From: a virus
Strand: one strand, 5' to 3'
Virus record (IMG/VR): IMGVR_UViG_3300028392_000059
Location: 1-64,000 of that record
Length of the DNA: 64,000 nt
A model generated the notes under the pieces. That model did not search any database, had not been told where the DNA came from, and worked only from the letters and a program-made list of their open reading frames with translations. The position numbers and the translations under genes were made by a program. Below, in pieces: positions 3,089 through 57,568 of the stretch; positions within the stretch are counted from its first letter, which is position 1; each line of letters begins with the position of its first letter.

Positions 3089-3104
3089 TTAATCTAACGG
3101 GTTC
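3089..3104 (-). promoter_or_regulatory. putative phage promoter (GAACCCGTTAGATTAA)
   Basis: 14/16 match to the motif at 26036, 43658 and 57553; upstream of the lysis genes. Confidence 0.7.
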
Positions 3105-3206
3105 CGGTAAGGCTATCGTGCAAATTTTATAGTGTGGTAGCAGGCGGGTTATTGCTCACATTTGAGAACTGCAACCTGCTACGCTCACACCCGACATCAG
3201 ACGAGT

Positions 3207-3704
3207 CTACAAAGTCGAGTTTCGATCACCCAGCAAGCTCCTTGGATAGTTGTTTGTAAGACGTCTCAATCGCCCGCCATACTCTTGCCAGCCATTCTTT
3301 TCGAGCACTCTTGTAAACACACCCTTTGAAGGAAGATAGCTAGAAGTGATAACAACCTGAGCACCCATCTTTTGTGCAAATTCAAAATAGTGATTGTGAA
3401 ACATTACTAGCGCTTTTACAGCTTTGATACTACTTAAATTTGTGTGATAATAGATTTGCGAGAAAGCTTTGATAGATGAATGGTGTTGATCATGACCTTC
3501 TGAACAAGCCATCCATGCTACAAGCTTATCTGTATCATCAATCATAACCTTAAAGTACTTCATTCCAGACATAAAACCACTAAGCATGTTATAAGAACTT
3601 TCAGCTGTTACAGGAAACAAGGGGTCTCCATATACTTCATAAAGACCCCTTGACATTTCCGTTATAGCAGCAAAATCGCTTCTACGAACAGACCTTATTT
3701 TCAC
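3207..3704 (-). CDS. GNAT-fold protein
   Basis: IRSVRRSDFAAI N-terminus, FAQKMGAQVV and LEKNGW C-terminal pattern. Confidence 0.55.
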   Translation of the reverse strand: MKIRSVRRSDFAAITEMSRGLYEVYGDPLFPVTAESSYNMLSGFMSGMKYFKVMIDDTDKLVAWMACSEGHDQHHSSIKAFSQIYYHTNLSSIKAVKALVMFHNHYFEFAQKMGAQVVITSSYLPSKGVFTRVLEKNGWQEYGGRLRRLTNNYPRSLLGDRNSTL

Positions 3705-4222
3705 GGCCAACCAGCATTTAAATTAACAGCAGCAAGCCCAGCCTCATCTGTACAGATGTTAATAGCTGCTTTAAGTGTAATGTTATACATAGTGACTGCT
3801 GAAATATAATCTACAGCATCATTTACCATTGCCACAAAGTCACTTCTTGTAAAGTTAATGACGTCATTATTAGCCATTACCCATTCTACAGTTTCGCTAT
3901 CACCCTGCGCATTTGCTGTTAGATACACAAGTGATTGCATATCAACTTGCAACAGACCATATGTACTGTTAAAGTTATCTCGCTTTTCTTGAAAGATTTG
4001 AGATAGCTGATTGTGCTTATGGCGTTTATGCTGCTCAAGCTCAATCATAAAAGGTGTATTAGTGAACACACCATTTTCATAATTAATCTTTGCACCTGTA
4101 GCACGAAGCTCAACTAGCTCATGGTAAGTTTCATCAAAAATTTGTACAACATCACTTGGCATTGTCTTGTGAATAGTATTTTTATAGAATGAGTCTGTTT
4201 CTTTAGAATAGAAATATGACAT
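3701..4222 (-). CDS. tail fibre assembly/chaperone (DUF4376-like)
   Basis: YFYSKETDSFY..IH..MP.D N-terminus; W..ANN and L.AV...W C-terminus; follows the fibre gene. Confidence 0.75.
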   Translation of the reverse strand: MSYFYSKETDSFYKNTIHKTMPSDVVQIFDETYHELVELRATGAKINYENGVFTNTPFMIELEQHKRHKHNQLSQIFQEKRDNFNSTYGLLQVDMQSLVYLTANAQGDSETVEWVMANNDVINFTRSDFVAMVNDAVDYISAVTMYNITLKAAINICTDEAGLAAVNLNAGWP

Positions 4223-7200
4223 TTAATATCCAATCGCAATCCAAGAAAAGCCCAGAGCATACTTACCGGACCAACCTGTTTGCATAACAGCTTTAAATCC
4301 AGACGTTGTCCAGTTCTTATTTGTTTGGCCCCAATAGTCACCATCTGAACCTGTACTACCTGTACCAAGAACTTGTGACATAGCCATTAAACAAGCATTA
4401 GGAAATGTTAATGGAAAATTAATATCATATTCACCTTCAGGGTATGAATATGAAGAACCACCTAACATACCCCATTGCATAATAGAGCCATTAGCAAGTT
4501 CAAGATAGCCATTAGCAGCATTACTAGACGAAGCAACAGCGTCAGATGATAATTTAATACGTGTAACTTCAAGATTTTTAATCTTAGCACCAGTAATAAC
4601 AGCATCACCAATCTGAGCAGTTGTAGTGATTAACGAACCTGTCAAAGATAACTGGTCACCAGTAATAGAGTTAGCTAGAATATGATCTGCAGTAATAGAG
4701 CCATTAACAATAAGATTACCACCAACAGCTTCTCTTAACGACAATGCACCAATACGCATAACACCACTCATTGTGGTTGTTCCTGCATTGTATACACCAA
4801 AACGTACCTGAGTAGCATTAGCCGGTGTTGTTAATGCAATTGATTTAACACCAGCTGTATTAGTAGCCCATGTTAGTGCAGTAGAAGAAATGACAGTACC
4901 GTCTGCTTTGAAAAACTGTGCATATACTGATAGCGTCTGATTACTTGTATTATAAGCAGCAGCTTTCCATTCATACTGTGTGCTTGGTTTTACATCAGTC
5001 ATACCTTGCGGATAATGTAAAATACCATTACGAATACTATGTCTTGTATTCTTAGCTGCAGTATCAAGTGTGCTCGCATCAAGAACAGCGTAGTTAGTAC
5101 CAAGGTACTCGTAACCTGTAATGATTGTATTATCAGTTTGCCAAGTATTTGCTTGAAAAGGTATATAACCACCAATATCAGTACGAGTAATCAGCCAAAA
5201 ATCACTATCAATGAATGTAGGATCAGCTACTAGATTGCTTGCAGAAATTTTAATCTTGCTAGCTGTAATCGCTTCACCAGCAATTTTACTTGCAGAAATA
5301 GCACCTGCAAATATTTTATCGGCAGTGACACAATTTACAGCAAGTTGATCTGCAGTGATTGAACCATCAACAATCATTTCAGAACCATTAGCACGCATTA
5401 GCTTGATACCACCATAAGCAGCGTAACTAGCTAAAGCAGCAGTTCCATTAGCATAAAATACAAATTCAACTTTCACAAAGCATGCTGTAGCAGGTACATA
5501 AATCTTGCATTCAAGATTATAATTTGAAGTACCTGACTTAGGTGTAGTACGATAGTCCCATGTAGTAGTTCTAAGCACATGACGATTACCTGTATCGATT
5601 AGACTATCAGTCACACCACTAGGAATGCTAGAGGGTGAACCATCAGCTAATGTAGCAGAGGGTATTACTTGTGTAGTACCATCACTCGAATACCAGGTAA
5701 GTCGAATTGAAGACGCACCATTAAATGTACTACCCACACGATTTTTACAAAACAAACGAACCCAACTACCACCCTCAACAGCGATACGATCACTTCTTGA
5801 TGTTACAATCGTGCTAGAACCAGCTGTAAGAACAGTTGGTGAGTAAATAGCAGACGGCGTAGCCATTGCAACAGGTACAGAGCCTGTAGGACCAGAATAA
5901 CGGCAAGTTGTGTTACCCATATCCCAGAACGCGTCAGTACCACTAACGGGGTCTGTACTTCTATCTTGAAACATTGCATCTTGAATTAGATTAAATGTAT
6001 CAATAATAGCAAGCTTGCTTGTAACAACAGAACTTGCAGCAAGCTGGTCAGTTGTAATAGCACCAGCAGCAATTTGACCAGCAACAAGCTGACCTATGAT
6101 TTGAGTTGCATCAGCTGTATCAACAAATTGCGTACCATCTGCTCTATACAAACGCTTAGCACCAGTTAAGTAAACCATTCTACCATTTGTGTAATCTGTA
6201 CCAGCAGCAGTTAATGAGGTGAACAGCTCTACAGGTTTAATTGACGATGCGAAAAGAGTTGCATCAATTGAGTTACCAATCAAATCACCTGTGTCAGTAG
6301 CTGTTGTCCACGCACCGCTAGAATATCGATAGATTTTACCATTTGTTGTATTGTACAGAATTTTAGGACCAGTATATCCTGTTGGACTAGGCAATGTGGT
6401 AACACTTTTAACTGGCTCAAGACCCTGAACAAAGTCAGTAGTATCAACAGATGTAACGTTAATAGGACCAATACGTGTAGAATAGCTAGACTGATTACCT
6501 ACATAATCTACAGACTTTAACCAGTAGTAATATGCTAAAGTTCCATCAAGATTGCTATCAATAAAGCTACCATAATTAGCAACAGTTGCTGTACTTGGTG
6601 ATACTTTAACGGAACCAATTTTAACAGGACTGCCACTTGTCAAACTTCTATAAATATCAACACGATCAAGATCAGTAGCAGTGTCGTTTGTCCAAGTAAG
6701 AATATTAGATCTAAACGCTGATGCTGCGCTGATATTTGAAGGAGCAGCTGGTGCTGTATTGTCTACAACCGCAGCTAACGTTGCAATAGATGAATACGCA
6801 CTACGATTACCAGCGTCATCTACGGCACGTACTCGAAAGTAATATGCCGTTTTAAGTTTAAGATTCTTAGTGGCGATTGATGTTACATCAGCGGGTGTGG
6901 TACCAAGAGGTGCCCATGTACCTGTGCTTGTTTCACGCATATCAATTTCGTAATGGTTAAGATCACTGTCAGAAACAGGATCCCAATCAAATGCGCATGT
7001 GACAGAGCGATAACCATAGAAATCAACTTCAACAAGCGGTGTAATAGGTGTAGTTGCAAGTGCAGGTATAGCAGGCGCTACAGTATCAGCAGTAAGATCA
7101 GTACCTTGTTTAATAGAAAATATAGGCGTATCAGCTGTTGATGTAAAGCTGCTAGTAGTTTCGTAAACAACAACACTATAGTGCTTAATAGCAGAGTCAG

Positions 7201-20899: not shown

Positions 20900-20910
20900 C
20901 TCAATTCCTT

Positions 20911-20956
20911 AAATAAAAAGCCCCCACCAAGTCCGGTTAAGGAGCCTAGTGAGGGC
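20911..20956 (-). terminator. intrinsic terminator upstream of the tape measure gene
   Basis: about 15-bp stem with G-U pairs on the minus strand, followed by TTTTTATTT. Confidence 0.75.
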
Positions 20957-20961
20957 AAAGA

Positions 20962-25924: not shown

Positions 25925-26035
25925 TATTCTTAGTCCTTTGAGTACAACTCATGAAATACAAGAGCACGGCTCTTATACTAAACTATGTAGATATAGGTCA
26001 TTTCAACACACAAGTTTTCCTGACCCATACCTGGG

Positions 26036-26051
26036 TTAATTTAACGGGGTC
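26036..26051 (-). promoter_or_regulatory. putative phage promoter (GACCCCGTTAAATTAA)
   Basis: exact copy of the motif, upstream of scaffold/capsid. Confidence 0.8.
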
Positions 26052-26055: not shown

Positions 26056-29000
26056 TTACCCGACGCCATACCATCCATGATTCTGCTCAAAATCATACGG
26101 AGCGTCTTCTAAGATATCCTCAACAGTCAATATGTCTTCTTTGGTAAGAATACGATCACCAACTTTTGATTTACCGGCGACAGGTATCAGTCCTTTATCA
26201 ATTGCTTCTTGCAAGTAAGCATCGTAACTTGCTTTTGGAAGACCTCTAGCAAGCATTTCATCTAGTGTCATTTTAACAACATTGTTAGTTAGCGTCTCGG
26301 CGTAAATACCACGAAGGGCTGTACGTCCAGGAAGCAAATCTGCAATGTTAGTAAAGAAAGCATCGTGAATAGTGCTCGTAGGAACATTATTACGTTTGCC
26401 CCATAAATGAAACTTCTTTACAATTACAGCGTCATTAGAGTGATTACCATTAACAGCAAATGCAGTACGTGCTTTAGTAGCATCTGCAATGTCGTTAATT
26501 TTACCTTCTTTGTTAAGAACCTCATCCCACCAGCTAGCAGTAGTCTTTTGAGGTACCATCAGAATATTAGTAGTCCAATTACCGTTTGCATCTTTGTAAA
26601 CAAGACGCTCTTCAAACGTCTGCGTGAAATTCTGCTCAATTACTTTACCATCAAAGTTTACCCAAGGAACATTTGTCCATGATTTAGGTAGATCATTCAT
26701 ACTTGTATAAGCAACAGACACTTCACTAGCCTTAGAAACATCTTTAAGTGTAGTGATACCAAGCTTGCTAGCTACATCACCAGCTACACCAAAATCTAAC
26801 TTCCAAAGCTTACGACCTACAGCACGGTCTTCAGGTATGTCAACACCAAGCAGCAAATCAGCAAGTCCGCTGTTAGGGTTCCATTTAGAAAATACCTTCT
26901 GCAATAGCTGTTCTGTAACAGGTGTATTTGCTGGTAAGCCAAGTACTTGTGATAACACTTTAGGCAGACGATAACCTTTACTGCGTTTACCACGAAGTGC
27001 AAGAGTTGCTACTGTCTTCCAACTGATATTAGCATTTGAAGGTTTAGCATTCGTAAGGTACTCTTGTGCCAACCTGCCAAAGAATTTTGTAAAGTCCTTA
27101 AGAATAGGAACCTGTTCAGCAAGATGATCACTCATGATATTAGCTATCTGTTTGAAGTCATCAGGTGTTACAATGCGTTCATACGACTGAGAAAGCTTTT
27201 CAACAATATCTTTTGTAGCAGGATCAAGAAACCAAAGTTGTTCCATTATCTGGTCGCCAGGGTCTTGTCCTTTGTTAAAGATATCTCTAACATCATCACG
27301 TAAAGAACGTAGCAGTTGTTCGCCCTCAGGGTCATATCGTGCTACACGTGCAATACGCGCATCAATTTCGTTGAGAACTTTTTGACGATCTGTAGCAGTA
27401 ACAACAAGTGTCCCTGAGTCTTTACCAAGCACTTTACCAAGCTTACCTTCTACGTTAAGAATACCAGTACGTTCACCAGCACCATAGAAAGTAACCATGT
27501 TTTGGGCTTTAGCAGCTTTCTGCAAGTCTTTAAGACCAAGTCCTAACTTTTCATTAATCTTTTTAAAGCGAGGATCATTATATGTTGATGCTGCAATTTC
27601 ATCGTATAGACGACGTTTTTGATTAGTCAACACAACATTAGAAAGGCCAGCTAATTGCTTATTACGCGTAGTAAGTGCAATAATCTGAGCGCCAGATGAA
27701 CTAGCGTCTTGTTCCATTGCAAGCGCAGTTTCAAACGTATCTAATGTGCCACCAGCAGCAAGATGACGATCTATTTTAGCTGTCTCAATTGCAAAACGAA
27801 AGAACTTACCTAACTCTTCACCATCAACACGCTGTACTGTAGGGTCTTCGAGAATAGCGCGTATATCAGCAGGCTTTGCACTGATCATACGTTCACCAAT
27901 TTCTCGAAGCTTAGGTCTCCAAGTAGCAGCAATCTTACGCCTACCCGTAAATGTAAGACTATCATATGGTCCTTCAAAGTGATCGCTAAGACCACCAAGA
28001 AAGGCACCAATCTGATCTGTCAAAGCGTCATTACCGTCATTACCGAGAATTTTAACTGCTTCTGTATTTAAGAAGGGCCTAAAACTCTCACCCGACTGCG
28101 GGCTTATAAGACCACGGTCATAAACGCGAGCACGATGGTCAATGAACGGATGATTGCTAAATGCAGCATCTTTCTCACGTAACCACTGCATAGATTTAAA
28201 GCGCTCGTAGGCGTCACCACGAGAACTAATGTAATGCTTGTACTCATTCAAATCATCATAAAAAGCTGCTTTACCGCGATCATCTTTGAAGTAAAGAAGC
28301 TTTTGGGTAAAGTCATAAAAGTCCGGATCAACCTTATACTTTGTTTTAGAAGCCCACGTTAGTGCATCAACGAGCTGCTTGTCAACAAACTTAACAGGGA
28401 AATCGCTATATGATGACGTAGAGGTAATTGGGATACGCGTATCATAAAGGCCGAGAACGCCCCTGTCGATGAAATACGTCTTGTAGCCTTCGCGGAATAG
28501 CAGACGATTTTTGTCATTTATAACTCCAACACGTAATCCAAGCTCAACTTGCCTTGTAAGCTTTGAATAGGCAGCAATACGAGGATCAATAACATTTACA
28601 TAATATGATACAGTGTCATAGTACGGACCGAAATATGCACCAGACAGGCGTGAACGCATTCTACGCTTTTGAACACCAAATGTATCAATCTCAAACAGAT
28701 GCCCAGCTTTCTTCTCAAGAATGTTAAGACCCGTTTGATACCATTGTTTGCGATTACCATTAAGATTTGCAAGATTATAAAGATCACGACCAAGTGATAC
28801 AGCAAGCGAGTCTCTATCAGGAGAATCAGCCATACCAAGCTTATGTGCAAATCTAAGGTAAAACTGCTGCATTTGTGAGTCGTCAATCCGACCACGTAAC
28901 CGTAAAGGGATTGTAGTGTCGAACACGCCTTTAAGTTCAGCAGCTATTTGAGGAGCTACTCTATCTTCCCATGCATTGCGTGCTACAATATTCTTAACAA

Positions 29001-30708
29001 AGTTTCTTTCAAGAGTGTCAAGCTGTGTACGACCAAGAACAGGATCAATGTAATCATCGTCTACCAGCTTTTTGAGAACATCTTGCCCTTTACGGATTTG
29101 AGTTTCAATAGCGTCAGAGACATTCATAACATCAAACTTAACTTGTGATTGCGCTACAGCTTTAAAGTTACCCCAAACTTCACGGTTATCTCGATAACGG
29201 CCGATTACAACACGAAGGTTATCAGCAATAACAGCACGCTCATTCATACTAAGCTTTAAAGAAACATCGTCAAGAACTTTATTAATGAAAGCTTTGTCAT
29301 CGTCTTTAAGGCTTACACTCTCATTTACACGACGAACAGCACCTTCAAAGACTTCAGCGTTAGGTTGATACAAACGAACGTCATCATACCTACCTGTAAG
29401 CGGATTGAAACGCAACTGCTCTTCAGTAGGAGGAGATTGGAGTACTCTACGCTTTGTAGCTTTCTTCGTATGCAAGAGTGTACCACGATAGTTTGTCAAT
29501 GATAACGTACCATCAAGCTCACCTGCTTGCAACAAATAATAGTCTACAAGAGTATTACGCATGTTATATAAATCTTCAGGCGTAGCAGCGCCAAGTTGCA
29601 TAGCATCTAGTTTAGCTTTTGCATCGGCAAATTTACGTGTATCACCAGGGATTGTATAGCTATCAGCAGTCAGCTGACGAAGCTCTTTGATACCAATTGT
29701 GTTACCGTTCGGATTGCTAAACTTGTCAACAGTCAGTTTGTTTGTATTCAAAAGATCAACTGACTTGTAATCACCAAGATGACGCAACTGTACATCCGAA
29801 GGTTGACGCTTAAGCCAATCATTATAGCTTTCTCTTAACGGTGTCTGACCGTCATAGTATGCTTGTTGCTTCGGCGTGAGGTTTGCAAGGTTTCTTTTTC
29901 TTACTTCCGCAGCACTTTCCAAAGAACCAATATCAGACCAAGACTTAAACACAGGTATAGTCGTAGAACGACAGTTCCAGTGAGCAGGCGGTAGGTGCTC
30001 CACATCACCAACGGGGTAAATAACGCCGTCCCTATGAGAGCACAGAGGAGTAGTCCTTGAATCGAGAACGGCCACATACTGCCACCCATTAAGGGCTTTC
30101 TCATTAGCTTTGTAAACTTCATGATCCGCCTGTGCATGTACTGATGTGATACTTGTAGTAACCAGCGACTGTGCTTGGAAACGTGTGATTTTGTGAACGT
30201 TACCACGACGTACATCAAGAGCAATATCAGTTGCTGTTTTACCTTCTGAGATACCTTTACGAATTACAGCTTCAATACGTTGCTTTTCAAGAACAGACAT
30301 ACCGGCCCAACTTTGTGACAATGTCTTATCATTATACAAAGGACGTTCAAGCACAACTTCTTCAGCAACACGACGAGTAGGTCTTTGTGTGCGCCAAATC
30401 TTACCCATTACAGATTCCATGTTTTGATAAGCAAATGATGCTTGATCAGCAAACAAATCTAGTAATGAACGACGGTGAGTAGATTGTAATTCGGTATATG
30501 TATCTACGAGTTCTTTATCAATTGCTTCTCGTAGTGTTTCAAGACCTTTGGCAGATGTATGAGCATCTTGAATGAGCTTGTCAAGTCTAACTGTATGGCC
30601 GTCAATAACTAACGAAACCTTACCTTGTACTCGACGCTCATAAAGACGAATCATCGCCGCTCTATCAACAGCCTTGTCGTAAAGTTGTGTGTTAGCATTA
30701 ACGGCCAC
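26056..30708 (-). CDS. MuF (SPP1 gp7-like) minor head protein fused to a T7-family single-subunit RNA polymerase
   Basis: N-terminal YVAVLDSRTTPLC...PPAHWNCRSTTIP (MuF); C-terminal DHRARVY..ISPQ, motif A QDASSSGAQ, motif B K-x7-YG, NHSNDA, motif C IHDAF. Confidence 0.92.
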   Translation of the reverse strand: MAVNANTQLYDKAVDRAAMIRLYERRVQGKVSLVIDGHTVRLDKLIQDAHTSAKGLETLREAIDKELVDTYTELQSTHRRSLLDLFADQASFAYQNMESVMGKIWRTQRPTRRVAEEVVLERPLYNDKTLSQSWAGMSVLEKQRIEAVIRKGISEGKTATDIALDVRRGNVHKITRFQAQSLVTTSITSVHAQADHEVYKANEKALNGWQYVAVLDSRTTPLCSHRDGVIYPVGDVEHLPPAHWNCRSTTIPVFKSWSDIGSLESAAEVRKRNLANLTPKQQAYYDGQTPLRESYNDWLKRQPSDVQLRHLGDYKSVDLLNTNKLTVDKFSNPNGNTIGIKELRQLTADSYTIPGDTRKFADAKAKLDAMQLGAATPEDLYNMRNTLVDYYLLQAGELDGTLSLTNYRGTLLHTKKATKRRVLQSPPTEEQLRFNPLTGRYDDVRLYQPNAEVFEGAVRRVNESVSLKDDDKAFINKVLDDVSLKLSMNERAVIADNLRVVIGRYRDNREVWGNFKAVAQSQVKFDVMNVSDAIETQIRKGQDVLKKLVDDDYIDPVLGRTQLDTLERNFVKNIVARNAWEDRVAPQIAAELKGVFDTTIPLRLRGRIDDSQMQQFYLRFAHKLGMADSPDRDSLAVSLGRDLYNLANLNGNRKQWYQTGLNILEKKAGHLFEIDTFGVQKRRMRSRLSGAYFGPYYDTVSYYVNVIDPRIAAYSKLTRQVELGLRVGVINDKNRLLFREGYKTYFIDRGVLGLYDTRIPITSTSSYSDFPVKFVDKQLVDALTWASKTKYKVDPDFYDFTQKLLYFKDDRGKAAFYDDLNEYKHYISSRGDAYERFKSMQWLREKDAAFSNHPFIDHRARVYDRGLISPQSGESFRPFLNTEAVKILGNDGNDALTDQIGAFLGGLSDHFEGPYDSLTFTGRRKIAATWRPKLREIGERMISAKPADIRAILEDPTVQRVDGEELGKFFRFAIETAKIDRHLAAGGTLDTFETALAMEQDASSSGAQIIALTTRNKQLAGLSNVVLTNQKRRLYDEIAASTYNDPRFKKINEKLGLGLKDLQKAAKAQNMVTFYGAGERTGILNVEGKLGKVLGKDSGTLVVTATDRQKVLNEIDARIARVARYDPEGEQLLRSLRDDVRDIFNKGQDPGDQIMEQLWFLDPATKDIVEKLSQSYERIVTPDDFKQIANIMSDHLAEQVPILKDFTKFFGRLAQEYLTNAKPSNANISWKTVATLALRGKRSKGYRLPKVLSQVLGLPANTPVTEQLLQKVFSKWNPNSGLADLLLGVDIPEDRAVGRKLWKLDFGVAGDVASKLGITTLKDVSKASEVSVAYTSMNDLPKSWTNVPWVNFDGKVIEQNFTQTFEERLVYKDANGNWTTNILMVPQKTTASWWDEVLNKEGKINDIADATKARTAFAVNGNHSNDAVIVKKFHLWGKRNNVPTSTIHDAFFTNIADLLPGRTALRGIYAETLTNNVVKMTLDEMLARGLPKASYDAYLQEAIDKGLIPVAGKSKVGDRILTKEDILTVEDILEDAPYDFEQNHGWYGVG

Positions 30709-35624: not shown

Positions 35625-38572
35625 TAGTCGCCTCCACTACTAGAATAGTAGTTTGGATCACCGCCATTTTGAAAATTGCCGCTTGTAATTTCTAACGTAC
35701 CGCTATTAAAAAAGATGTTAGTAACAAATGTGTAAGTATAAGAAATTGTGTTACACTTAAGATAAAACCCATTTAAATTAAGATGAGACACAAATGACAG
35801 TATACCGCTAGTAGTAAGATCACTAGATAGAAGAATAGTAGTACCTACAGCGTAACCTACTGTAATATTACCAAAAACCTTGCCAGAGGGAATGGTAAGA
35901 GTAGCACCAGTTAAAATTAATGTTAAACCACCAACATTACAATTGTTACCAAATATTGCAAAGCCTGTGCTCACAACTTGAAGCGTACCTGCGATAACAC
36001 CATTATAATTTGTAGAATCAAATCCCGCAACAAACTGGAAGCTATTGCTTATACTTACAGTATCCGAGCCACTATCTAAATAAAAATATAATGGATTACT
36101 TCCAGGAATAATCGTACGAGTGCCAGTTGTTGGGTTACCAGATAAGTAGATTCCTCCACTATATTGATTACCATTTCCTGAGTAAACTGTAGTATTCGTA
36201 CCTGTCAGAATGTGTTTGCTATATGCAGCACTACAGTCAAGAATACCTGAATTACTTAAAGTGGCAGAGGTAAATGTATAACCCGCATAAACAATAGTAG
36301 CACCAGCATTAACAGTAACAGTACCACTTATACTACGGTTAGCTGGTAATGTAGTTGTTGATCCAGTGTTTGCAACTAAATTTGTAATAGTTATCTGTGA
36401 ACTTGCGGGTAAAGTAAAACTTACATACCCACCAATATTCATAGTAGTTGTAGTTATTTTGTAGCTATTATATACAAAAGTTACAACAGAAGATGCTGCC
36501 AGTGTCAACGATGTTAACGTAATATTACTAGATAATGTAAAAGTAATAGTACCATTTAATGTAAGATCACTATACGTTAATGTATAAGAGCCATATGAAA
36601 TGGTAGCACCAGCAAACAGGCTTAGCGAGTAAAATGACATATCATTTGGTAATGTAAATGCTACATTTGCTGCTAATGTTAAAGAGTTAGAAGGATTTAG
36701 TACAGTATAACCACCTGTATAGAAGGTAAGGCTCACTGTATTGTTAATCTTCAAATCAGTACAAACAAGAATATTTGCAAAATAGGTACTATTATTTATA
36801 ACAGCTGTATAAACGACTACAGGATTAACACTATAGTTTATGTTACCGCCGCTAAATGTTAGAGTATTAAATGTTGTAGTTCTAGAATTAGTGTTAAGGA
36901 ATAATGTACCGCCCGTAAGTACACATTGATCAATAGTAACTGCTGACGGCGGTGAGAACGTAATTGAACTTGTAAAAGTAACAACGCCAGTCCCTACAAC
37001 AAACCCGGCAAAAGCACTACCAAATGTGATATTACTGAGTGTAAAGCTACCATTTAAATAGCCACTAAATACGCTCAAATCTAACGAACCAATAAAAGGC
37101 CCATAAATAATGGCACTACCGTTTCCACTAGCTTTAACATTAATGGCAATACTAGAAGTATACGTTCTAGCTGCAGAACCGGCACCATTACAGTTAAACA
37201 CAAAACCAGAGGGGATTGTACCACCAGTTACACTAATAACAGTGCCACTAGCACCAGTTAACGTAATACCACCGCTAGTCGCAGATATAGTGCCACCGGT
37301 CATATTAAGCGATGGTGATGTTATTGTAATTGAGCTTATATTAAACGTACCAGCACTAATAGTCAACGAGGCAAGTGTACGTGCAGTATCTGCAATAGTA
37401 GTTATACCCGATTTGCTTAAATTAAGCCCCAGCGAATACAAAATAAAAGGCAGCGTATTATTTGCCTGCGGTGACCATACAAGTGCACTTGTTGTTGTAG
37501 AACTAATAAAAGAAGGTAAGGCTGCAGTAGCAAGAGTACCAGTCATTTTACCAGAACCAGACACAACACCGTCTATACTTACACCAATGAAATTAGCAAG
37601 ATTGACAGTATCAGCAAGCGTGTTAATATACAGTACAACATCACCAGTCGTAACATTCACTGTTCGAGTACCTGTGGTACCAGTCGATGAAAACGTAACA
37701 CTCAAGTTACCGCTAGGGCGTGTACCGCCTGTAACAGTCAATGTAGCTGTACCACTACCACCTGAACACGTAACAGTATTAGAGCCCATTGTAAGGACAC
37801 CACCTGTTTGTGAAAAAGTGTTACAAGTTAAATTACCATTAAATGTAATATTACCCGACACAATACTAATAGGAGCAGTTGTTGTGATACCACCAGAAAA
37901 TGTAACAGTATTACCTCCACCAGCGTCTACAGTAACACTACATGTTAATGACGCCGTAGGTACAGTAATAGAACAAGCGGTAGATACGAGTATAGCTGAT
38001 GACGTTGCAGTACCAGCAATTTTACTGCTAACCGTCGTTACAATACTTAAACCACCCGCTTGTAGCGTAAGTATATCTGCTGAGCCTAGTGTAAGTGTTA
38101 CAGGTCGTTTAGTACCCGTATTGTCTGTTGTATCAACGATACTCAAACCATAGATAGTACGAGACACTGTAGTGTTCATTGCAACAGATTGTGCTAACGA
38201 AGCGTTTGTAGTTACATAACACATATCACCTGTAGTAGGTGCAGAAGCAGCAGTAGCTTCAACAGCTAAAATAGGTTGCGATGTAAAGGCAGCTGTACTT
38301 GCAGTTAATGTATACGTACCTGTACCATCCGAATTTGCAGCTGTATTGGATGAGATAATACCACAAGCAACCATTGCTGTAGCAGTGTTATACCGATACA
38401 GACGATAGCCATTAGGTAGTTTACCGTTACCATCACCAGCGGTTACAGTTAATGATGTACCTGTAGTATTGATTTGAGCAGTCACGCGGCGAGGACCATT
38501 AGCAAACCAGTTTGTAGTACTTGAAATAGAAGCAGATGTATTAGCAAGCATGAACAGATATCTATCAGCCAT
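35624..38572 (-). CDS. Thr/Ser/Gly-rich beta-helical fibre/adhesin-like structural protein
   Basis: 982 aa, very few charged residues, repeated xLTxxGGT beta-solenoid pattern. Confidence 0.7.
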   Translation of the reverse strand: MADRYLFMLANTSASISSTTNWFANGPRRVTAQINTTGTSLTVTAGDGNGKLPNGYRLYRYNTATAMVACGIISSNTAANSDGTGTYTLTASTAAFTSQPILAVEATAASAPTTGDMCYVTTNASLAQSVAMNTTVSRTIYGLSIVDTTDNTGTKRPVTLTLGSADILTLQAGGLSIVTTVSSKIAGTATSSAILVSTACSITVPTASLTCSVTVDAGGGNTVTFSGGITTTAPISIVSGNITFNGNLTCNTFSQTGGVLTMGSNTVTCSGGSGTATLTVTGGTRPSGNLSVTFSSTGTTGTRTVNVTTGDVVLYINTLADTVNLANFIGVSIDGVVSGSGKMTGTLATAALPSFISSTTTSALVWSPQANNTLPFILYSLGLNLSKSGITTIADTARTLASLTISAGTFNISSITITSPSLNMTGGTISATSGGITLTGASGTVISVTGGTIPSGFVFNCNGAGSAARTYTSSIAINVKASGNGSAIIYGPFIGSLDLSVFSGYLNGSFTLSNITFGSAFAGFVVGTGVVTFTSSITFSPPSAVTIDQCVLTGGTLFLNTNSRTTTFNTLTFSGGNINYSVNPVVVYTAVINNSTYFANILVCTDLKINNTVSLTFYTGGYTVLNPSNSLTLAANVAFTLPNDMSFYSLSLFAGATISYGSYTLTYSDLTLNGTITFTLSSNITLTSLTLAASSVVTFVYNSYKITTTTMNIGGYVSFTLPASSQITITNLVANTGSTTTLPANRSISGTVTVNAGATIVYAGYTFTSATLSNSGILDCSAAYSKHILTGTNTTVYSGNGNQYSGGIYLSGNPTTGTRTIIPGSNPLYFYLDSGSDTVSISNSFQFVAGFDSTNYNGVIAGTLQVVSTGFAIFGNNCNVGGLTLILTGATLTIPSGKVFGNITVGYAVGTTILLSSDLTTSGILSFVSHLNLNGFYLKCNTISYTYTFVTNIFFNSGTLEITSGNFQNGGDPNYYSSSGGD

Positions 38573-43381: not shown

Positions 43382-43446
43382 GGGACTCGTTTCTCAGTTC
43401 GACGATGGAGGAAAAATCAACTAACAACTAAACTCGACAGAGTTCA

Positions 43447-43462
43447 TTAAGTTAACGGTGTC
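43447..43462 (-). promoter_or_regulatory. putative phage promoter (GACACCGTTAACTTAA)
   Basis: 14/16 match to the motif, followed by TGA as at 43658 and 3089. Confidence 0.65.
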
Positions 43463-43568: not shown

Positions 43569-43657
43569 TTAATAGTTATATTATATATTTATATTAAGGA
43601 GGATACATCATCTACAACTTAACATTGAGGGTGAACCCCCCAGCGGGCAGCTAATCA

Positions 43658-43673
43658 TTAATTTAACGGGGTC
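43658..43673 (-). promoter_or_regulatory. putative phage promoter (GACCCCGTTAAATTAA)
   Basis: exact copy of the motif at the start of the late region. Confidence 0.8.
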
Positions 43674-43730
43674 TACCAACATTTGTGCACACATTTTCAA
43701 TACAAAAAATTCGCGTTATCGGCCAGAGCG

Positions 43731-43806
43731 AAAAAAAAAAAAGATTGTGTCCCCAACACACCACTCAACCAACCCGCAATGGGGTCAATCAAATGGTGTG
43801 TTGGGG
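43731..43806 (-). terminator. long hairpin plus U12 closing the accessory region
   Basis: 25-bp uninterrupted helix (6 G-U) at 43751-43806; T12 lies 8 nt downstream. Confidence 0.75.
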
Positions 43807-44543: not shown

Positions 44544-44686
44544 TTTTTAATCCTTTTAAATACACAAAACCATGTGTGCTCTCTAAGTGTAAAATTTACA
44601 AGTTCCCAGCCGTCGTCACCAAGTTTATTTAACTCGGTCGTGTATGGTCGGCCTTCAAAACTTACGATCTTATATTCAAACTGCAT
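44540..44686 (-). CDS. DUF4177-like protein (48 aa, not in track)
   Basis: FEYKIV...LNKLGDDGWELV...FKR. Confidence 0.75.
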   Translation of the reverse strand: MQFEYKIVSFEGRPYTTELNKLGDDGWELVNFTLREHTWFCVFKRIKK

Positions 44687-46762: not shown

Positions 46763-46940
46763 TTGGGTTTCTCCGGTAGGTCTTGGATGATTTGTTTCAT
46801 CTTATCTAAGCAGTGTAGTAACTTTGTTTTAATCTCTGTATTCATTCCACGGTGAATAAGAGCATTGTGAAATCGCCAAAGAACTTCGCTTAAATAACCA
46901 TTAAAAGTTGATACAGCTTCTTCCATAGGATATTCCTTTT

Positions 46941-46968
46941 GAGGGTGATCCTATTAAAGATCACCCTC
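46941..46968. terminator. intergenic hairpin
   Basis: GAGGGTGATC-8 nt-GATCACCCTC perfect 10-bp stem; no U-tract on minus. Confidence 0.5.
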
Positions 46969-46977
46969 TGAAGTTAA

Positions 46978-50709: not shown

Positions 50710-50710
50710 A

Positions 50711-51928: not shown

Positions 51929-51949
51929 TATTTACGTTGATTTCTTTTG

Positions 51950-52543: not shown

Positions 52544-52545
52544 GA

Positions 52546-52854
52546 TCAATATTCCTTTGCTTCAGTGATGCAAGTCTGGTTATCAGGGAGAACGATACCT
52601 TTGAAAGTATCTGCAGTCGTTCGAATGAGTGCTGCAAGTCCCTTCTTGTTACTGTCTTCCTTGTGAAACTCATAGCAATAATGTGAGAGATCGCGATTGA
52701 CACCTTCATTATATTCACGACTAGTGTCGTAAACTTGTGAACGTGTTTCTTCACGAACCTTTTGAATCTGTCGATCTGCAAAAAGGCCAAAGGATGTAAG
52801 TGCAAACCAAACAACGATAACAGCAAAAATGCCGAGGATAACATTTTTAATCAT
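52546..52854 (-). CDS. single-TM membrane protein
   Basis: N-terminal TM, then a helical domain with 2 Cys. Confidence 0.7.
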   Translation of the reverse strand: MIKNVILGIFAVIVVWFALTSFGLFADRQIQKVREETRSQVYDTSREYNEGVNRDLSHYCYEFHKEDSNKKGLAALIRTTADTFKGIVLPDNQTCITEAKEY

Positions 52855-53117
52855 ACAAGCTCCGTCCGTGTAACTGCATTTGTTTCAAGCACTTCAAGTG
52901 CCTGGAGAACATAAAACTTTTGGCCAGGGTTGTTGGCAGCTAAGCGTGTAGCTTCTGTAACAGCCGCTGCACGTGACTGATGGCGAACAGCAGGTGCTCT
53001 TCCACCTTCACCATACACCATGTAAAATGCTCGTGTCATAGTTTTCTTTTTCCTTTCTTCTGCCATACGCTCATTAAAATCGTATAGTGCTTGAACAGCA
53101 AGTGGATTAATGTCCAT
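52851..53117 (-). CDS. conserved small phage protein
   Basis: P..RH.S...A..EA.RLA..NPG..FYVL. Confidence 0.65.
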   Translation of the reverse strand: MDINPLAVQALYDFNERMAEERKKKTMTRAFYMVYGEGGRAPAVRHQSRAAAVTEATRLAANNPGQKFYVLQALEVLETNAVTRTELV

Positions 53118-53340
53118 TGAACAAGCTTTCAATAGTGTTAAGACTCGTACGAAATGCTTCAAGAGGAATAGTGTTAGCAAAAGTAATCACAATATCAGGC
53201 TCTACAACAGGCGCAAACAAACGTTCGCCTACTACGGCAAGTTCTTCATTCTTAAAGAACATGATAGCAGGCTGCATTTCACCATGATAACCTGCAACAA
53301 GCGTCCATTCACCGTTACCAACATTAATTTTAGTTTGCAA
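53107..53340 (-). CDS. hypothetical protein
   Basis: 77 aa, AGGA RBS. Confidence 0.55.
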   Translation of the reverse strand: MQTKINVGNGEWTLVAGYHGEMQPAIMFFKNEELAVVGERLFAPVVEPDIVITFANTIPLEAFRTSLNTIESLFNGH

Positions 53341-53815
53341 GCATATTTCCTAACGCAATAGCTGAGAGAATAAGTGCGACAATATAAGGCCACACTGGTG
53401 GTTCGTTTGGTGGAATTGTTGTAACGTCTTTATAGTGTTTAAAGAACACTTTGCCTTCATTATTATATTCTACAGTTATACAATTACTATCTGTAGATTT
53501 TTTAGGACGAAACAACATGCCATTAAAGAAACAATCGGAACGCGATTGATATGCTTTTTGCCACTTGATACCGTTGTCTAATGTAGCATCATGTTCTTTT
53601 GTTTCATGTACCAGGTTAGCACGTGCTTTATCACACTCTGTTTTGTAATGTGCAACAAGTGTTTGAAGACTAATAAGATGATTTGTGAGAAAATTCAAAA
53701 CATAGTACATTGTCAAATGACTTTGAACAACTGTACCATTGTTTGAAATTGTAAATTCTCGTCTACCTTCAATCTCTATTAACTCTCCTGAAGTAGTTTC
53801 AAAGGCTACTTTCAT
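53330..53815 (-). CDS. hypothetical protein with C-terminal TM
   Basis: GGAG RBS before MKVAFET; hydrophobic C-terminus. Confidence 0.55.
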   Translation of the reverse strand: MKVAFETTSGELIEIEGRREFTISNNGTVVQSHLTMYYVLNFLTNHLISLQTLVAHYKTECDKARANLVHETKEHDATLDNGIKWQKAYQSRSDCFFNGMLFRPKKSTDSNCITVEYNNEGKVFFKHYKDVTTIPPNEPPVWPYIVALILSAIALGNMLAN

Positions 53816-54110
53816 TGATTTTCTCCAGATACCAAAGATATGCTGTTGTTGCACCAATCAAACCTACCTTCCACCCTAGAAGCTTACCTTTCTTGTAAGC
53901 ATGGAGCGTCGGAGCAGCTACGATTTTACAACGATGCGCAATATCCGCGTAAGTATCAATATCAACTGTATAGATATCAGTCTCGACAATTTTAAGCCGA
54001 TTGAACAAATCCACTGAAGGACTTGCCCAATCGGCCCAAAATAATACTAAAGCTGTATCTAACGAAGATATTGTACTATCAAACGTATCAGATACAAGCG
54101 GTTTAAGCAT
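53799..54110 (-). CDS. thioredoxin-fold protein lacking both catalytic cysteines
   Basis: LVLFWADWASPS (vs WCGPC), VDID, IA....I..APTL..YK.G. Confidence 0.8.
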   Translation of the reverse strand: MLKPLVSDTFDSTISSLDTALVLFWADWASPSVDLFNRLKIVETDIYTVDIDTYADIAHRCKIVAAPTLHAYKKGKLLGWKVGLIGATTAYLWYLEKINESSL

Positions 54111-54410
54111 TTACAGTGTCTTCAACACTTCATCAACGTTTGCAAAAAGCGGATGGTTAGACTGCTCCAAAGCCTTGCGAATGACTTCCTGACGCTTATC
54201 AGAAGGCCAATTAATAGAACCTTGAATGACCACATTAAGAACGTCGGCAATCACTTCGATAGTGTTCTCAGGATGGATTGCGAAGTGCGCGGCCATAGTG
54301 TCTACTGAACTATTGACGTCAGAGGGTGTGACGACGACCGCCGGAGCACTGGAGGCATCCGCAGGTGCATTTCCCGCACCGTTGTCTTCCACGAAAAATT
54401 CTTCAGCCAT
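54111..54410 (-). CDS. hypothetical protein
   Basis: 99 aa, GAGGA RBS. Confidence 0.65.
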   Translation of the reverse strand: MAEEFFVEDNGAGNAPADASSAPAVVVTPSDVNSSVDTMAAHFAIHPENTIEVIADVLNVVIQGSINWPSDKRQEVIRKALEQSNHPLFANVDEVLKTL

Positions 54411-54603
54411 TAATCAATTCCTCTTCATTGGTGAAATCAAGATAATCATTGCGCATTGCAATCTTATCTTCTAGTGGCGCATTTAGATAGCCGTTGAAAC
54501 CATCTATATACTCTTGTGGTTTAGTGGATAGCAGCGGATTAAGCCCAAGATGAGCAGCATTCCATCCACTAGTGTATGTATCAGAAAATGGTGGCGTTGG
54601 CAT
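54403..54603 (-). CDS. hypothetical protein
   Basis: Y..GW.A / Y..GF repeats. Confidence 0.55.
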   Translation of the reverse strand: MPTPPFSDTYTSGWNAAHLGLNPLLSTKPQEYIDGFNGYLNAPLEDKIAMRNDYLDFTNEEELING

Positions 54604-54997
54604 ACGTTACACCATTATACCTAATTTTGAAAGTAGCACCTTCGTTATTCAACGCGTCTACAATACCATGAATATTAAAACGTGATACATGAATATAGAG
54701 TGTATTCAAAATATCTTGCACATCACGTTTTCTATCATCATTCAAAATGTTGTAACGCAACACGAGCGCATGAATAAGAGCATACAACGCTTTGTTAAGG
54801 TCGTTTACACCTTCATTTGTGACTTTGGAACCGTTACCCCATTTTGCATTTTTAAGTACCGTGTTTGCGACCTTAGTTGCAGCACGATACAGATGATTAG
54901 TGTCCATAGAGTATGGATCATTTAGGCGACCATTGCTGTCTACCCATTTAAAATCATGCGGGATTTTACCCTGCAAGATATGTGTGTTAATGAACAT
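54581..54997 (-). CDS. hypothetical protein
   Basis: 138 aa, GAGGA RBS. Confidence 0.65.
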   Translation of the reverse strand: MFINTHILQGKIPHDFKWVDSNGRLNDPYSMDTNHLYRAATKVANTVLKNAKWGNGSKVTNEGVNDLNKALYALIHALVLRYNILNDDRKRDVQDILNTLYIHVSRFNIHGIVDALNNEGATFKIRYNGVTYANATIF

Positions 54998-55012
54998 AGT
55001 GTATCCTCTAAA

Positions 55013-55086
55013 TGGTGCTCTTACTCAGAATCGAACTGAGATATCCGCGTTACAAAGGCGGCGCTCTACCATTGAGCTATAAGAGC
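55013..55086 (-). tRNA. trnT: tRNA-Thr(UGU), CCA encoded
   Basis: GCTCTTA/TAAGAGC acceptor stem, loop TTTGTAA, TTCGATT. Confidence 0.9.
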
Positions 55087-55087
55087 A

Positions 55088-55173
55088 TGGTGCGCATGAC
55101 TGGACTCGAACCAGCACGTCTAAAAGACACAAGATTTTAAGTCTCGGGCGTCTACCAATTCCGCCACACGCGC
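55088..55173 (-). tRNA. trnL: tRNA-Leu(UAA), CCA encoded
   Basis: GGCGGAATTGGTAGACGC D arm, loop CTTAAAA, long variable arm, TTCGAGT. Confidence 0.93.
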
Positions 55174-55179
55174 ACTGAG

Positions 55180-55560
55180 CTATAAGATCAAAAGCTTTTT
55201 ATACCAATCAGAGATATATGTGTAGATACTTGGAGCACATTCTCTTAAACGTGCCCTTCCTGTACCTATACCATCTTCTGGCCAGTAGACTGTTTTACCT
55301 GCTTTTAAATGACGTTGCAACTTCAAAAAAGCTGTATCAATTTTCACTTGCACTTTAAAGAAATCATCTTCAGAAAAGAATGCTTCAGCTTTATTACTCG
55401 GCAACCATTTTGTTGGGATACCTACAGTATTAGGCTCACCGCATGCTTCTTTAGCTTGACCACGCCACCCGTTACCTTGCATATTACTACCATACACAAA
55501 AATATCGTCTGGATGTGCTCTAATAAATTCTCTAGTGTAGTGTTTGATTTGCTTAATCAC
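55180..55560 (-). CDS. macro-like domain protein
   Basis: IFVYGSN..G.G..GQA, GIPTK, GIGTG.A. Confidence 0.7.
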   Translation of the reverse strand: MIKQIKHYTREFIRAHPDDIFVYGSNMQGNGWRGQAKEACGEPNTVGIPTKWLPSNKAEAFFSEDDFFKVQVKIDTAFLKLQRHLKAGKTVYWPEDGIGTGRARLRECAPSIYTYISDWYKKLLIL

Positions 55561-56112
55561 GCAGCTAACGACGCACTATTTGCATGATACGCAGTCGAAT
55601 GAATGAAGCCTGTCTCAGTGTAAAAACCCCAATCACGGTCTTTTTGCAATGATGCAAACACAGTCAAACAACCTGGCGATGTATCTACAATAGCATGAAC
55701 AGAACTACTATCACGTAGAATGATATCACCCTCATGGCGTCTTTCGACGCCAATGAACTTATTGCTACCTGTTTCATACACATTTTCATCGTACCAACCA
55801 GATACAATTAAAGATGCATTTGGCCACGGATGGCAATGAGGGTCATCACGATCAGGGCGCGCGTATTGATGAATATAAATGTTTTCTACTTCTGACGCCA
55901 TCACACCAAAGTAATGCAAAGGCATAGAAGGGTCATCATACACAGGTACCATAGCCTTACGACTCAACATCCATCGGTTAATGTATGGTGAACCGTTACG
56001 ACTAATGATTTGATTAGGCGTTCTACTATTAACAATGCCGCTAACAAAGTTTTGAGCAAAAACCTAAAAGGATAGGTGGAAGTGCTTCTCGCACAACAGT
56101 AAAGTCAGTCAT
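55557..56112 (-). pseudogene. cupin-fold protein interrupted by a +1 frameshift
   Basis: H....D...PHCHPW...S.I.SGWY.E...H.I; N-terminus MTDFTVVREALPP is out of frame at T5 (56058-56062). Confidence 0.65.
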
Positions 56113-56285
56113 TCAACAACCTTTAGTGGAGGTAGGCTTGCGCGTAATTCTCGACGCTCACTCCTAAGTCTTTGAAGTTCTATCGAAGCATCGTAATTAG
56201 TAGCCTTACCATCGCGCTGCTCTTTCTTGACAAACAGAATTCGATCTGATATTTGGTTTAATCTTTTGAGAGTATCCGTGACCAT
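56109..56285 (-). CDS. hypothetical helical protein (58 aa, not in track)
   Basis: MVTDTLKRLNQ...KVVE*; ATGA overlap with the cupin start. Confidence 0.5.
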   Translation of the reverse strand: MVTDTLKRLNQISDRILFVKKEQRDGKATNYDASIELQRLRSERRELRASLPPLKVVE

Positions 56286-56547
56286 ACATTAGCCTCTTAG
56301 CTTCGTCTCTACTAACACCTAAGTCTTTAGCAATGATATCATAAAAGCTTTTACCATGACAACGCACAGGTAGCATAATTTCTGCACAGGGATTTGTTTC
56401 AATCTGAGCAGAGCGACGATCACCAGCATTGTAAATAGCTTCGTATTCTTGCATAAACCTTACATCATCAATGCAATACTTACGATATTCATCAACCCAA
56501 ACGTCACGATTAAAGCTGTAAGACTCAAAGTCCCAAGTTAGAAAGGG
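56206..56547 (-). CDS. mosaic ORF of DNA polymerase- and RNR-like motif fragments (start unclear)
   Basis: frame open upstream of the Met at 56454: LTWDFESYS, YCIDDV, NPCAE, RDEAKRLMYG. Confidence 0.45.
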   Translation of the reverse strand, partial: PFLTWDFESYSFNRDVWVDEYRKYCIDDVRFMQEYEAIYNAGDRRSAQIETNPCAEIMLPVRCHGKSFYDIIAKDLGVSRDEAKRLMYGHGYSQKIKPNIRSNSVCQERAARW

Positions 56548-56810
56548 CTGCCAACAAGTTCGTTTACCTCTTTTTCGAAAGTAGTAATAGAATCAGTATC
56601 GAGCAAATGATCATCATCATCTGTAGCGAACGAAAACAGACGCGTATTAAGATCATTGACTTCAGCCAGCTTTTCGTTAAGCCTCTTAATTTCTGCTTCA
56701 ATACTGACAACAGATTTGTTCAAACGAACATGAGAGGCCTCAAGACGTTTAGCACCTTGATCGCGAGCGGCTTCACGAGTATCATTAAGATGTTCTTCAA
56801 AATATGACAT
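56538..56810 (-). CDS. coiled-coil hypothetical protein
   Basis: AAGGA RBS before MSYFEEH. Confidence 0.65.
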   Translation of the reverse strand: MSYFEEHLNDTREAARDQGAKRLEASHVRLNKSVVSIEAEIKRLNEKLAEVNDLNTRLFSFATDDDDHLLDTDSITTFEKEVNELVGSPF

Positions 56811-56833
56811 AAATATTCCTTTTATTTGCATTT

Positions 56834-56864
56834 AAAATGGGGAGACCAAATTAATGATCTCCCC
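56834..56864 (-). terminator. intrinsic terminator
   Basis: GGGGAGATCA-TTAATT-TGGTCTCCCC-ATTTT. Confidence 0.75.
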
Positions 56865-56874
56865 AAGGTATTGA

Positions 56875-57450
56875 TTACGCAGTGCCAGCAGGTGCTTCGG
56901 CAGCAGCCTTAGCTTCCTTCTCAGCCTTCTGCTTTGCACGGTAGGCTTCAAGTGCATTAACAGCATTCGGCGAAACTTCACGCTTCACAACACCAGCCTT
57001 ATAAGCGGCAAGGATAGGCTCCTTGTTCTCAATGATAAAGCCAGCAAGCTTTTCATTACCGTCAGCAGCAGTCGTGAGGATTTCAAGCGCAGCAGCACTC
57101 TTCTCTTCATCAGTCATGCGCTTAACCGACGGCCAACGGAACGAAGTAGCGATAGCCTCCGAATTGTCAATAATAAACTGGGTGTCCTTAGCACCAGCCT
57201 TAGTGACAGCGGCAAGAGCTGCTTCCAGCTTCTTGATATCGCTCTTGGTAACACGCTGAATAACGCCAGCTTCAAACGCGGTTTCCACAGTTTCCTGATT
57301 ATCAACCAGCCACGAAACAAGCTTATCGTTGTCTGCGATAAACGTCTTCAGGGCTTCTGTAATCTTCGGACGACGCATAAAGGCCATAGCTTCAGCCTTG
57401 GTCTCAAAGCTCTGATCGCCAACCTGGAAAACCTGCTTAAGTTCAGTCAT
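56875..57450 (-). CDS. probably abundant Ala/Lys/Glu-rich phage protein
   Basis: strong codon bias; own motif upstream and own terminator downstream; GAGGA RBS. Confidence 0.8.
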   Translation of the reverse strand: MTELKQVFQVGDQSFETKAEAMAFMRRPKITEALKTFIADNDKLVSWLVDNQETVETAFEAGVIQRVTKSDIKKLEAALAAVTKAGAKDTQFIIDNSEAIATSFRWPSVKRMTDEEKSAAALEILTTAADGNEKLAGFIIENKEPILAAYKAGVVKREVSPNAVNALEAYRAKQKAEKEAKAAAEAPAGTA

Positions 57451-57552
57451 GTTAATGTATTCCTCTAAACGATAAAAAATATGCACCCTACAATGTGGGC
57501 ATATCATAATGAGATAAGTGAATTATCCCGAAGTCCCTATCCCACAAGTGGG

Positions 57553-57568
57553 TTAATTTAACGGGGTC
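57553..57568 (-). promoter_or_regulatory. putative phage promoter (GACCCCGTTAAATTAA)
   Basis: exact copy of the motif. Confidence 0.8.

Follow-up and report, generated by a model that had tools for sequence, protein, structure and literature searches.

The intergenic sequences of an uncultured phage and its relatives suggest, with a probability that we put at roughly 70%, that a repeated 20-bp element, here called the late motif, is the middle and late promoter of a free, 746-aa single-subunit RNA polymerase encoded by the same phage; the start site and the assignment to this enzyme are inferred from sequence and gene order. The phage is known from the IMG/VR virus record IMGVR_UViG_3300028392_000059, which is 75,364 bp long and rated complete. 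Coordinates 1-64000 refer to the window, the 64,000-nt stretch of DNA analyzed here (bases 1-64000 of the record), and positions beyond it are given as genome coordinates. The record describes a long-tailed siphovirus, with a 3288-aa tape measure, an 1881-aa tail fibre, a terminase and a portal, in which all sizeable open reading frames (ORFs) lie on the minus strand and intergenic gaps make up 5.9% of the genome. No named phage with near-identical DNA was found; the nearest named relatives are EBPR siphovirus 1, available as a partial record, and the roseophages DSS3_VP1 and DSS3_PM1 of the Naomviridae, of which the lineage studied here is a distant relative. An earlier note, made from the window alone, had described the core of the element as a 16-mer present in five co-oriented copies, and had suggested that a single-subunit RNA polymerase uses it as a promoter, the candidate readers being a polymerase fused to a MuF head domain and a second polymerase or an activator encoded outside the window.

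The 16-mer GACCCCGTTAAATTAA occurs exactly at window positions 26036, 43658 and 57553, and variants with two mismatches are found at 3089 and 43447, all of them on the minus strand and intergenic, as the earlier note had it. At up to three mismatches, the window contains seven matches versus 0.44 expected, and none of 100 shuffled sequences reached seven. The two with three mismatches were rejected, since both the match at 35766(+) and that at 44624(-) fall within an ORF and reach less than 8 bits on a 20-bp weight matrix. Beyond the window, a sixth copy, GAACCCGTTAAATTAA, is located at genome positions 70110-70125(-). When the 20-bp weight matrix, built from the sites of relatives, was scanned over the whole genome, exactly six sites were retrieved, scoring 15-34 bits, with the next best sequence at 8.1 bits and no site on the opposite strand. 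All six copies are located on the coding strand and within intergenic gaps (Table 1).

The genes downstream of the window copies are those named in the earlier note, namely lysis, scaffold/capsid and terminase genes, the last with two copies in tandem, and a "191-aa gene" that corresponds to ORF 56875-57507, encoding 210 aa from its first ATG. The copy at 57553 lies 46 nt upstream of this ORF and is directly followed by a mini-hairpin, CCCActtgTGGG; homologues of the 210-aa gene are also preceded by a copy in the relatives G001, G002 and G004. The tandem pair sits in a 713-nt gap preceding the terminase genes, with its weaker member 66 nt ahead of the ATG (43381) of a 142-aa ORF (a candidate small terminase), and approximately 25 nt of upstream sequence common to both members suggests a local duplication. 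The copy at 26036 falls after the stop codon of the MuF-polymerase gene and ahead of the scaffold/capsid genes, and the copy at 3089 lies 89 nt upstream of the lysis genes, which comprise a 79-aa ORF and then a 209-aa lysozyme-like or endolysin-like protein; the lysis region is also preceded by a copy in relatives. A terminator-like hairpin closes the gene block before the tandem pair, and the first copy of the pair stands about 58 nt after its T run. A start signal fits this arrangement as it fits the position of the motif at operon heads in general.

Conservation of the element was assessed in 79 viral loci retrieved in a search with the free polymerase, most of them 52-71% identical in that protein. 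The 16-mer has, at up to three mismatches, 83 matches on the coding strand of these loci and none on the other strand. The scan of the genome and its relatives that the earlier note had proposed thus yields six co-oriented sites here and a complete strand bias in relatives, so the orientation of the motif is not random. The consensus derived from 74 distinct sites, gAmCCCGTTAAATTAACCCt, is an asymmetric, sharply bounded 20-mer in which a G+C-rich block is followed by an A+T-rich block, and all of its information falls within 20 bp (positions -2 to +17), the flanks being at approximately 0 bits. The 20-mer has no inverted repeat or internal pairing and is invariant, not covarying. The bases that follow TTAA are CCC, in 61-65 of the 74 sites, or TGA, which is found in three of the six copies of this genome. 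A stem of at least 4 bp starting at the CCC, with compensatory changes, is present at about 31 of the 74 sites and absent from over half, and stems of at least 5 bp occur at 13 sites versus 3.6 expected. Some relatives carry AATTAACCCTCA, which resembles the T3 promoter; this likeness was judged coincidental, because conservation stops at CCCt.

The placement of the motif was compared in five complete genomes, consisting of this one and four relatives with proteins approximately 45-68% identical. All five keep the copy that separates the MuF-polymerase gene from the scaffold/capsid genes. The other four heads, with the homologous downstream gene identified, are kept in four genomes each for p79/lysis, p187-p195-DNA polymerase and p210, and in three for terminase. 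The replication head precedes a block of 187-aa, 195-aa and DNA polymerase genes situated just after the free polymerase gene.

A second motif class, tGCGgaAAaa..gGTATCTTATATGA, was detected via k-mers that recur among relatives in the region from the lysis genes to the free polymerase gene, and carries approximately 30 bp of information. This early motif is present in nearly all relatives, where a hairpin with a T run often stands before its first copy, and in this genome the exact sequence GGTATCTTATATG occurs at 2053-2065 and, outside the window, at 74339-74351(-). The two motif classes are arranged in a consistent order. Of the 87 early motifs counted in 46 related loci, 86 precede the free polymerase gene by 0.7-9.4 kb; no locus has a late motif between its first early motif and the polymerase gene, and in most loci the first late motif is found 0.34-2.7 kb past the end of that gene. 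As we read it, the spacing between the TGCG block and the TATA-like end of the early motif does not fit a sigma-70 promoter, and a consensus scan of the early region for sigma-70 promoters and terminators detected no enrichment (39 sigma-70-type sites found versus 38.1 expected). The early motif is probably read by the MuF-fused polymerase or by the host enzyme.

The possibility raised by the earlier note that a second polymerase is encoded outside the window is borne out by the free T7-family enzyme, whose gene is located at genome positions 70771-73011 (PF00940, E 3e-64) in a unit headed by the early motif. A six-frame search of the genome identified only two ORFs of the PF00940 family, this enzyme and the MuF fusion. 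A profile of 13 sequences of the free enzyme aligns to T7 RNA polymerase residues 270-883 with a probability of 100%, and its specificity loop region aligns with T7 739-770. In the same 13 sequences, R625, the equivalent of T7 R746, is nearly invariant, and Q636, the equivalent of Q758, is invariant. The free enzyme looks able to read the upstream block of a promoter through presumed contacts with the DNA. Its N-terminal 139 aa could not be aligned with the first 269 aa of the T7 enzyme, and neither an A+T-rich recognition loop nor an intercalating hairpin was identified there; this shorter N-terminal part would fit the missing conservation further upstream of the late motif. In nine loci (L050, L056, L059, L060, L062, L063, L067, L070 and L071), matches to the free polymerase extend over 2.75-3.3 kb in place of 2.24 kb, and the gene seems to be interrupted by inserts of approximately 0.5-1 kb.

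The second enzyme combines a MuF head domain with a very divergent T7-family polymerase domain, and its gene lies in the late operon headed by the 43.6-kb copies, as expected of a virion protein. The polymerase domain aligns weakly with T7 (probability 56%). A sequence search of the PDB with this domain as a single sequence returned no match, and one with a five-sequence profile returned only weak matches to T7 (E 0.03) and N4 RNAPII (E 0.17). Identity to the homologues in the DSS3 roseophages is 36% for the free polymerase and 32% for the fusion. The homologue of the fusion in EBPR siphovirus 1 (JF412302, locus L089; 25771-31144) is annotated as two genes, gp47 and gp49, separated by gp48, an HNH endonuclease gene, a layout that suggests an intron or other insertion in the polymerase gene.

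The earlier proposal of a promoter for a single-subunit RNA polymerase is therefore supported by the bounded 20-mer, its intergenic placement on the sense strand, the five operon heads largely kept among relatives and the absence, in 46 loci, of any copy from the early motif to the polymerase gene. A sharp element of approximately 20 bp, a candidate cognate polymerase with a specificity loop, operon heads on the sense strand and no copy in the polymerase's own unit are also what a T7-type promoter presents. In the mechanism that we propose, the early gene block, including the free polymerase gene, would be read from the early motif by MuF-fused polymerase delivered from the capsid or, less likely, by the host enzyme. 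The newly made free polymerase would then bind the G+C-rich half of the late motif, gAmCCCGTT, via its T7-like specificity loop and melt the A+T-rich half, AAATTAA, so that RNA synthesis would begin at or beside the TTAA/CCC junction. The six sites would drive the replication genes, the block of the 210-aa gene, the genes from terminase to MuF-polymerase, the scaffold, capsid and tail genes, and the lysis genes. Many of the transcripts would start with a short CCC...GGG stem-loop, which could protect the 5' end. We infer binding, start site and the pairing of enzymes with motifs; the free enzyme is assigned to the late motif because, with the enzymes exchanged, lysis and capsid genes would be expressed before all others.

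Several observations weigh against this assignment. The A+T-rich block is followed by CCC or TGA and not by the GGG of T7-type promoters, so a start on A or C, or on a purine inside TTAA, must be assumed. The three mini-hairpins of this genome (-4 to -7 kcal/mol) are no more stable than shuffled sequence, and the minority of sites with a stem noted above limits any role of the stem-loop. In one more distant clade (L073, L108 and L149; polymerase 46% identical, approximately 22 kb of phage), which retains the early motif, no late motif was found by intergenic inspection, repeated k-mers or the weight matrix. Covariation between specificity loop and late motif gave no signal, because the motif core is invariant within the clade, and the preference for the free enzyme over the fusion comes from gene order and temporal logic, not from covariation. 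EBPR siphovirus 1, whose fusion protein is 56% identical, has no copy of the late motif in its partial, high-G+C record, which is without a free polymerase, and this case weighs neither for nor against the assignment.

The roles of the two enzymes could be exchanged, with the MuF-fused polymerase reading the late motif, either after injection or late from new copies, and the free enzyme reading the early motif. The fusion protein does retain polymerase catalytic motifs, and the early motif ends in TATATG-A, which is nearer to the T7 initiation region than TTAACCC. We nevertheless consider this exchange unlikely, since the motif heads the late operon that contains the fusion gene itself, and new fusion protein would accordingly appear only late, and since an injected fusion reading the motif would leave the free polymerase gene with only a promoter that needs its own product, besides producing the premature lysis and capsid expression already mentioned. 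The polymerase domain of the fusion is, moreover, barely alignable with T7, whereas the free enzyme has a clear T7-type specificity loop. The earlier note's option of the MuF-polymerase as reader is hence disfavoured, and the fusion is better regarded as a candidate reader of the early motif, not of the late one.

A somewhat less probable account replaces the phage enzyme with the host RNA polymerase, aided by a phage factor such as a small sigma-like protein or an activator, as in T4 late or middle transcription. Under this account TAAATT would act as a -10-like box; it matches TATAAT at four of six positions, and T4 late promoters consist of a single A+T-rich box without a -35 element. The absence of information beyond 20 bp means that the late motif has no -35 box, and the -35/-10 layout of sigma-70 promoters (17±1 bp) is not seen. 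Six-frame searches gave no match to sigma-70 region 2 or region 4_2, although T4 gp55-like proteins were not specifically searched for, and sigma-70-type sites were not enriched, as described above. With two polymerases and two motif classes of its own, the phage leaves no unexplained motif for the host enzyme. Least probable, by a small step, is a function other than promotion, as an RNA processing or stability signal or as a DNA site for a repressor, packaging or replication. The short stem-loops with compensatory changes that follow many copies, and further leader sequence common to some late copies, could be read in this way, but the conserved part is itself unpaired and invariant rather than covarying, and its strict placement at operon heads, in one instance close behind a terminator-like hairpin, agrees with a start signal. 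Recurrence at five operon heads per genome, at largely the same places, would not suit a packaging or origin site either. Nor does the late motif resemble an intrinsic terminator, as it has no hairpin and the mini-hairpins lack a T run.

Promotion by the free polymerase thus remains the preferred interpretation, and T7 (Autographiviridae) is among its closest working parallels. Like the class II and III promoters of T7, the late motif is an asymmetric element of approximately 20 bp, intergenic and on the sense strand, with a recognition block followed by an A+T-rich melting block, and in both phages all copies are located after the polymerase gene, the first of them at a short distance (T7 phi1.1A lies 26 nt past gene 1). 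It differs from T7 in that its sequence is unrelated to TAATACGACTCACTATAG, that CCC takes the place of GGG, and that the phage is a siphovirus with a second polymerase. The view that the motif matches no known consensus, which the earlier note took with regard to T7/SP6 and sigma-70, needs a slight qualification, since a core, CCCGT(T)AA, is common to the late motif and the Syn5 promoter, and CGTTAAA is common to the late motif and the sites of DSS3_VP1. The Syn5 promoter, ATTGGGCACCCGTAA, which is likewise short, has been characterized with Syn5 RNA polymerase, and its core lies directly before the start region, as here (PMC3950665). The Syn5 element is then followed by G at +1, whereas here TTAA and CCC follow; Syn5 polymerase does start on A or C, with 36-52% of the yield obtained with G (PMC3950665), which makes a start at TTAA/CCC conceivable in this phage. 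The likeness to Syn5 may be convergent; the Syn5 polymerase is not among the 30 matches listed for the 746-aa enzyme.

DSS3_VP1 and DSS3_PM1 (Naomviridae, Noahvirus; PMC8323127) follow the same genomic plan, in which all genes lie on one strand, portal and scaffold flank a giant MuF-like head protein, and the replication genes come after a free polymerase; they also carry dU in place of dT (deoxyuridine for deoxythymidine). DSS3_VP1 (MN602266, loci L106/L107) contains 12 co-oriented copies of ATAGGGTGCGTTAAAGAGGGG across its middle and late genes, the 12 sites also being given as GGTGCGTTAAAG, and two early-type 32-mers, AAAAAGTGAGAAAACTAAGGCATCTATAATGA, at 35790 and 36237, at the start of the region leading to the polymerase gene. 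Both consensus sequences of the clade studied here are absent from DSS3_VP1. Between the two clades, CGTTAAA is common to the late sets and GG.ATCT.T.ATGA to the early ones, but the late consensus differs on both sides of CGTTAAA, and the DSS3_VP1 sites have a typical G-rich start, GAGGGG. The paper describing the Naomviridae genomes mentions neither the polymerases nor the motifs (PMC8323127).

A relay from a virion polymerase to early genes that include a second phage polymerase with its own promoter class has been described for N4 (PMC4496689) and for the Thermus phage P23-45, in which the virion polymerase is fused to the tape measure (PMC10770324). Unlike the enzyme postulated here, the virion polymerase of N4, the first in a programme of three polymerases, uses hairpin promoters, and N4 late genes are left to the host enzyme (PMC4496689). 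Upstream of the presumed start, the late motif has none of the stems of 5-7 bp with a 3-nt loop that define N4 hairpin promoters, its optional stem-loop lying downstream. The enzymes of P23-45 are two-barrel polymerases (PMC10770324), whereas both enzymes of the present phage belong to the T7 family, the candidate for the virion enzyme is a MuF fusion, and both middle and late genes seem to be transcribed by the second enzyme. Iyer et al. regard N4-like virion polymerases as restricted to N4-like phages. The Xanthomonas siphovirus Xp10 also has its own single-subunit polymerase, 27.5% identical to the 746-aa enzyme, and two tandem promoters of approximately 20 bp in a long intergenic region before its structural genes, comparable to the 43447/43658 pair; its early genes, in contrast, are transcribed by the host polymerase, and it has no second phage polymerase (PMC4331800).

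Taken further, and more tentatively, since we would place it slightly short of an even chance, the lineage may run its whole programme without host RNA polymerase, the capsid-borne MuF-polymerase acting on the 30-bp early motif to produce the 746-aa enzyme, which would act on the 20-bp motif at all middle and late operons, perhaps with a non-G start and a 5' stem-loop. The literature searched contained no account of this consensus or of a relay involving a MuF-polymerase; the promoter consensus is new, and its kind, a promoter of a phage single-subunit polymerase, is known. An anonymous repeat is thereby converted into a testable transcription map, comprising six units with defined heads, for an uncultured 75-kb phage and dozens of relatives, and, together with the early motif, into a testable relay from the virion MuF-fused enzyme to the free one. 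The compact 746-aa enzyme and a 20-bp promoter unlike those of T7, T3 and SP6 form a candidate new polymerase-promoter pair, of a type in demand both for orthogonal expression and for making RNA. The equivalent motifs could be mapped in a cultured relative, DSS3_VP1 on Ruegeria pomeroyi.

Table 1. Motif copies and associated features in the window. Scores in bits refer to the 20-bp weight matrix.
Feature	Coordinates	Strand	Sequence	Remarks
Early-motif copy	2053..2082	-	AAACGCGCAAATATGGGTATCTTATATG	Start of early gene block
Late-motif copy	3085..3104	-	GAACCCGTTAGATTAATGAT	Two mismatches; 23.3 bits
Late-motif copy	26032..26051	-	GACCCCGTTAAATTAACCCA	Exact 16-mer; 33.2 bits
MuF-polymerase fusion gene	26056..30708	-		1550 aa; PF04233 E 2e-13 and weak PF00940 match
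Late-motif copy, weaker of tandem pair	43443..43462	-	GACACCGTTAACTTAATGAA	Two mismatches; 15.2 bits
Late-motif copy, first of tandem pair	43654..43673	-	GACCCCGTTAAATTAATGAT	Exact 16-mer; 26.4 bits
Terminator-like element	43731..43806	-		25-bp hairpin and run of twelve T; minimum free energy -41.9 kcal/mol, z-score -7.8
Late-motif copy	57549..57568	-	GACCCCGTTAAATTAACCCA	Exact 16-mer; 33.2 bits

The leaders that follow the lysis copy (3030-3085) and the first terminase copy (43590-43654), both on the minus strand, have in common GTAGATGATGT.TAT..CCTC approximately 45-65 nt downstream, and in relatives a C-rich stretch, CG.CCCCTCC, comes after the copies upstream of lysis genes and could base-pair with a ribosome-binding site. 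After the copy at 43658, about 200 nt are free of ORFs. A TG(C/T)AC box is found 19-21 nt upstream of three late copies here and of a few in relatives (6 of the 74 sites in total), in this genome as the TGCAC within GTGCACAAAT and TGCACGATAG (window 43675-43700 and 3106-3130, minus strand), and might be the site of an extra regulator that sets late copies apart from middle ones. Runs of at least 12 T, followed by CG and a ribosome-binding site, occur on the minus strand at genome positions 73687-73699 (approximate), some 0.7 kb upstream of the free polymerase gene, and at window positions 43731-43742, before the late promoters, as well as in loci L049 and L073; these may be terminators or attenuators, or U-rich translation leaders.

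Other features of the genome were recorded alongside. The 127-bp terminal repeats of G002 and DSS3_VP1 were considered as physical genome ends and judged likely to be assembly overlaps. An Rfam search returned three tRNAs only and no RNA family at late-motif sites or leaders; the tRNA genes, all on the minus strand, are located at window positions 943-1014 (one, in the early region) and 55016-55173 (two adjacent, in the middle region). A family of intergenic hairpins exemplified by GGGGAGATCATTAATTTGGTCTCCCC, with stems of 9-11 bp and A+T-rich loops, often followed by TTTTAA, is present at window positions 56832-56874, 61440-61475 and 46927-46977(-) and at genome positions 69464-69517, and could represent attenuators, processing sites or 3'-end stabilizers. 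Lastly, a strong hairpin (-23.8 kcal/mol) followed by TTTTTATTT lies at approximately 20900-20961(-) in the window, directly upstream of the tape measure gene, and may be an attenuator that lowers tape measure expression.

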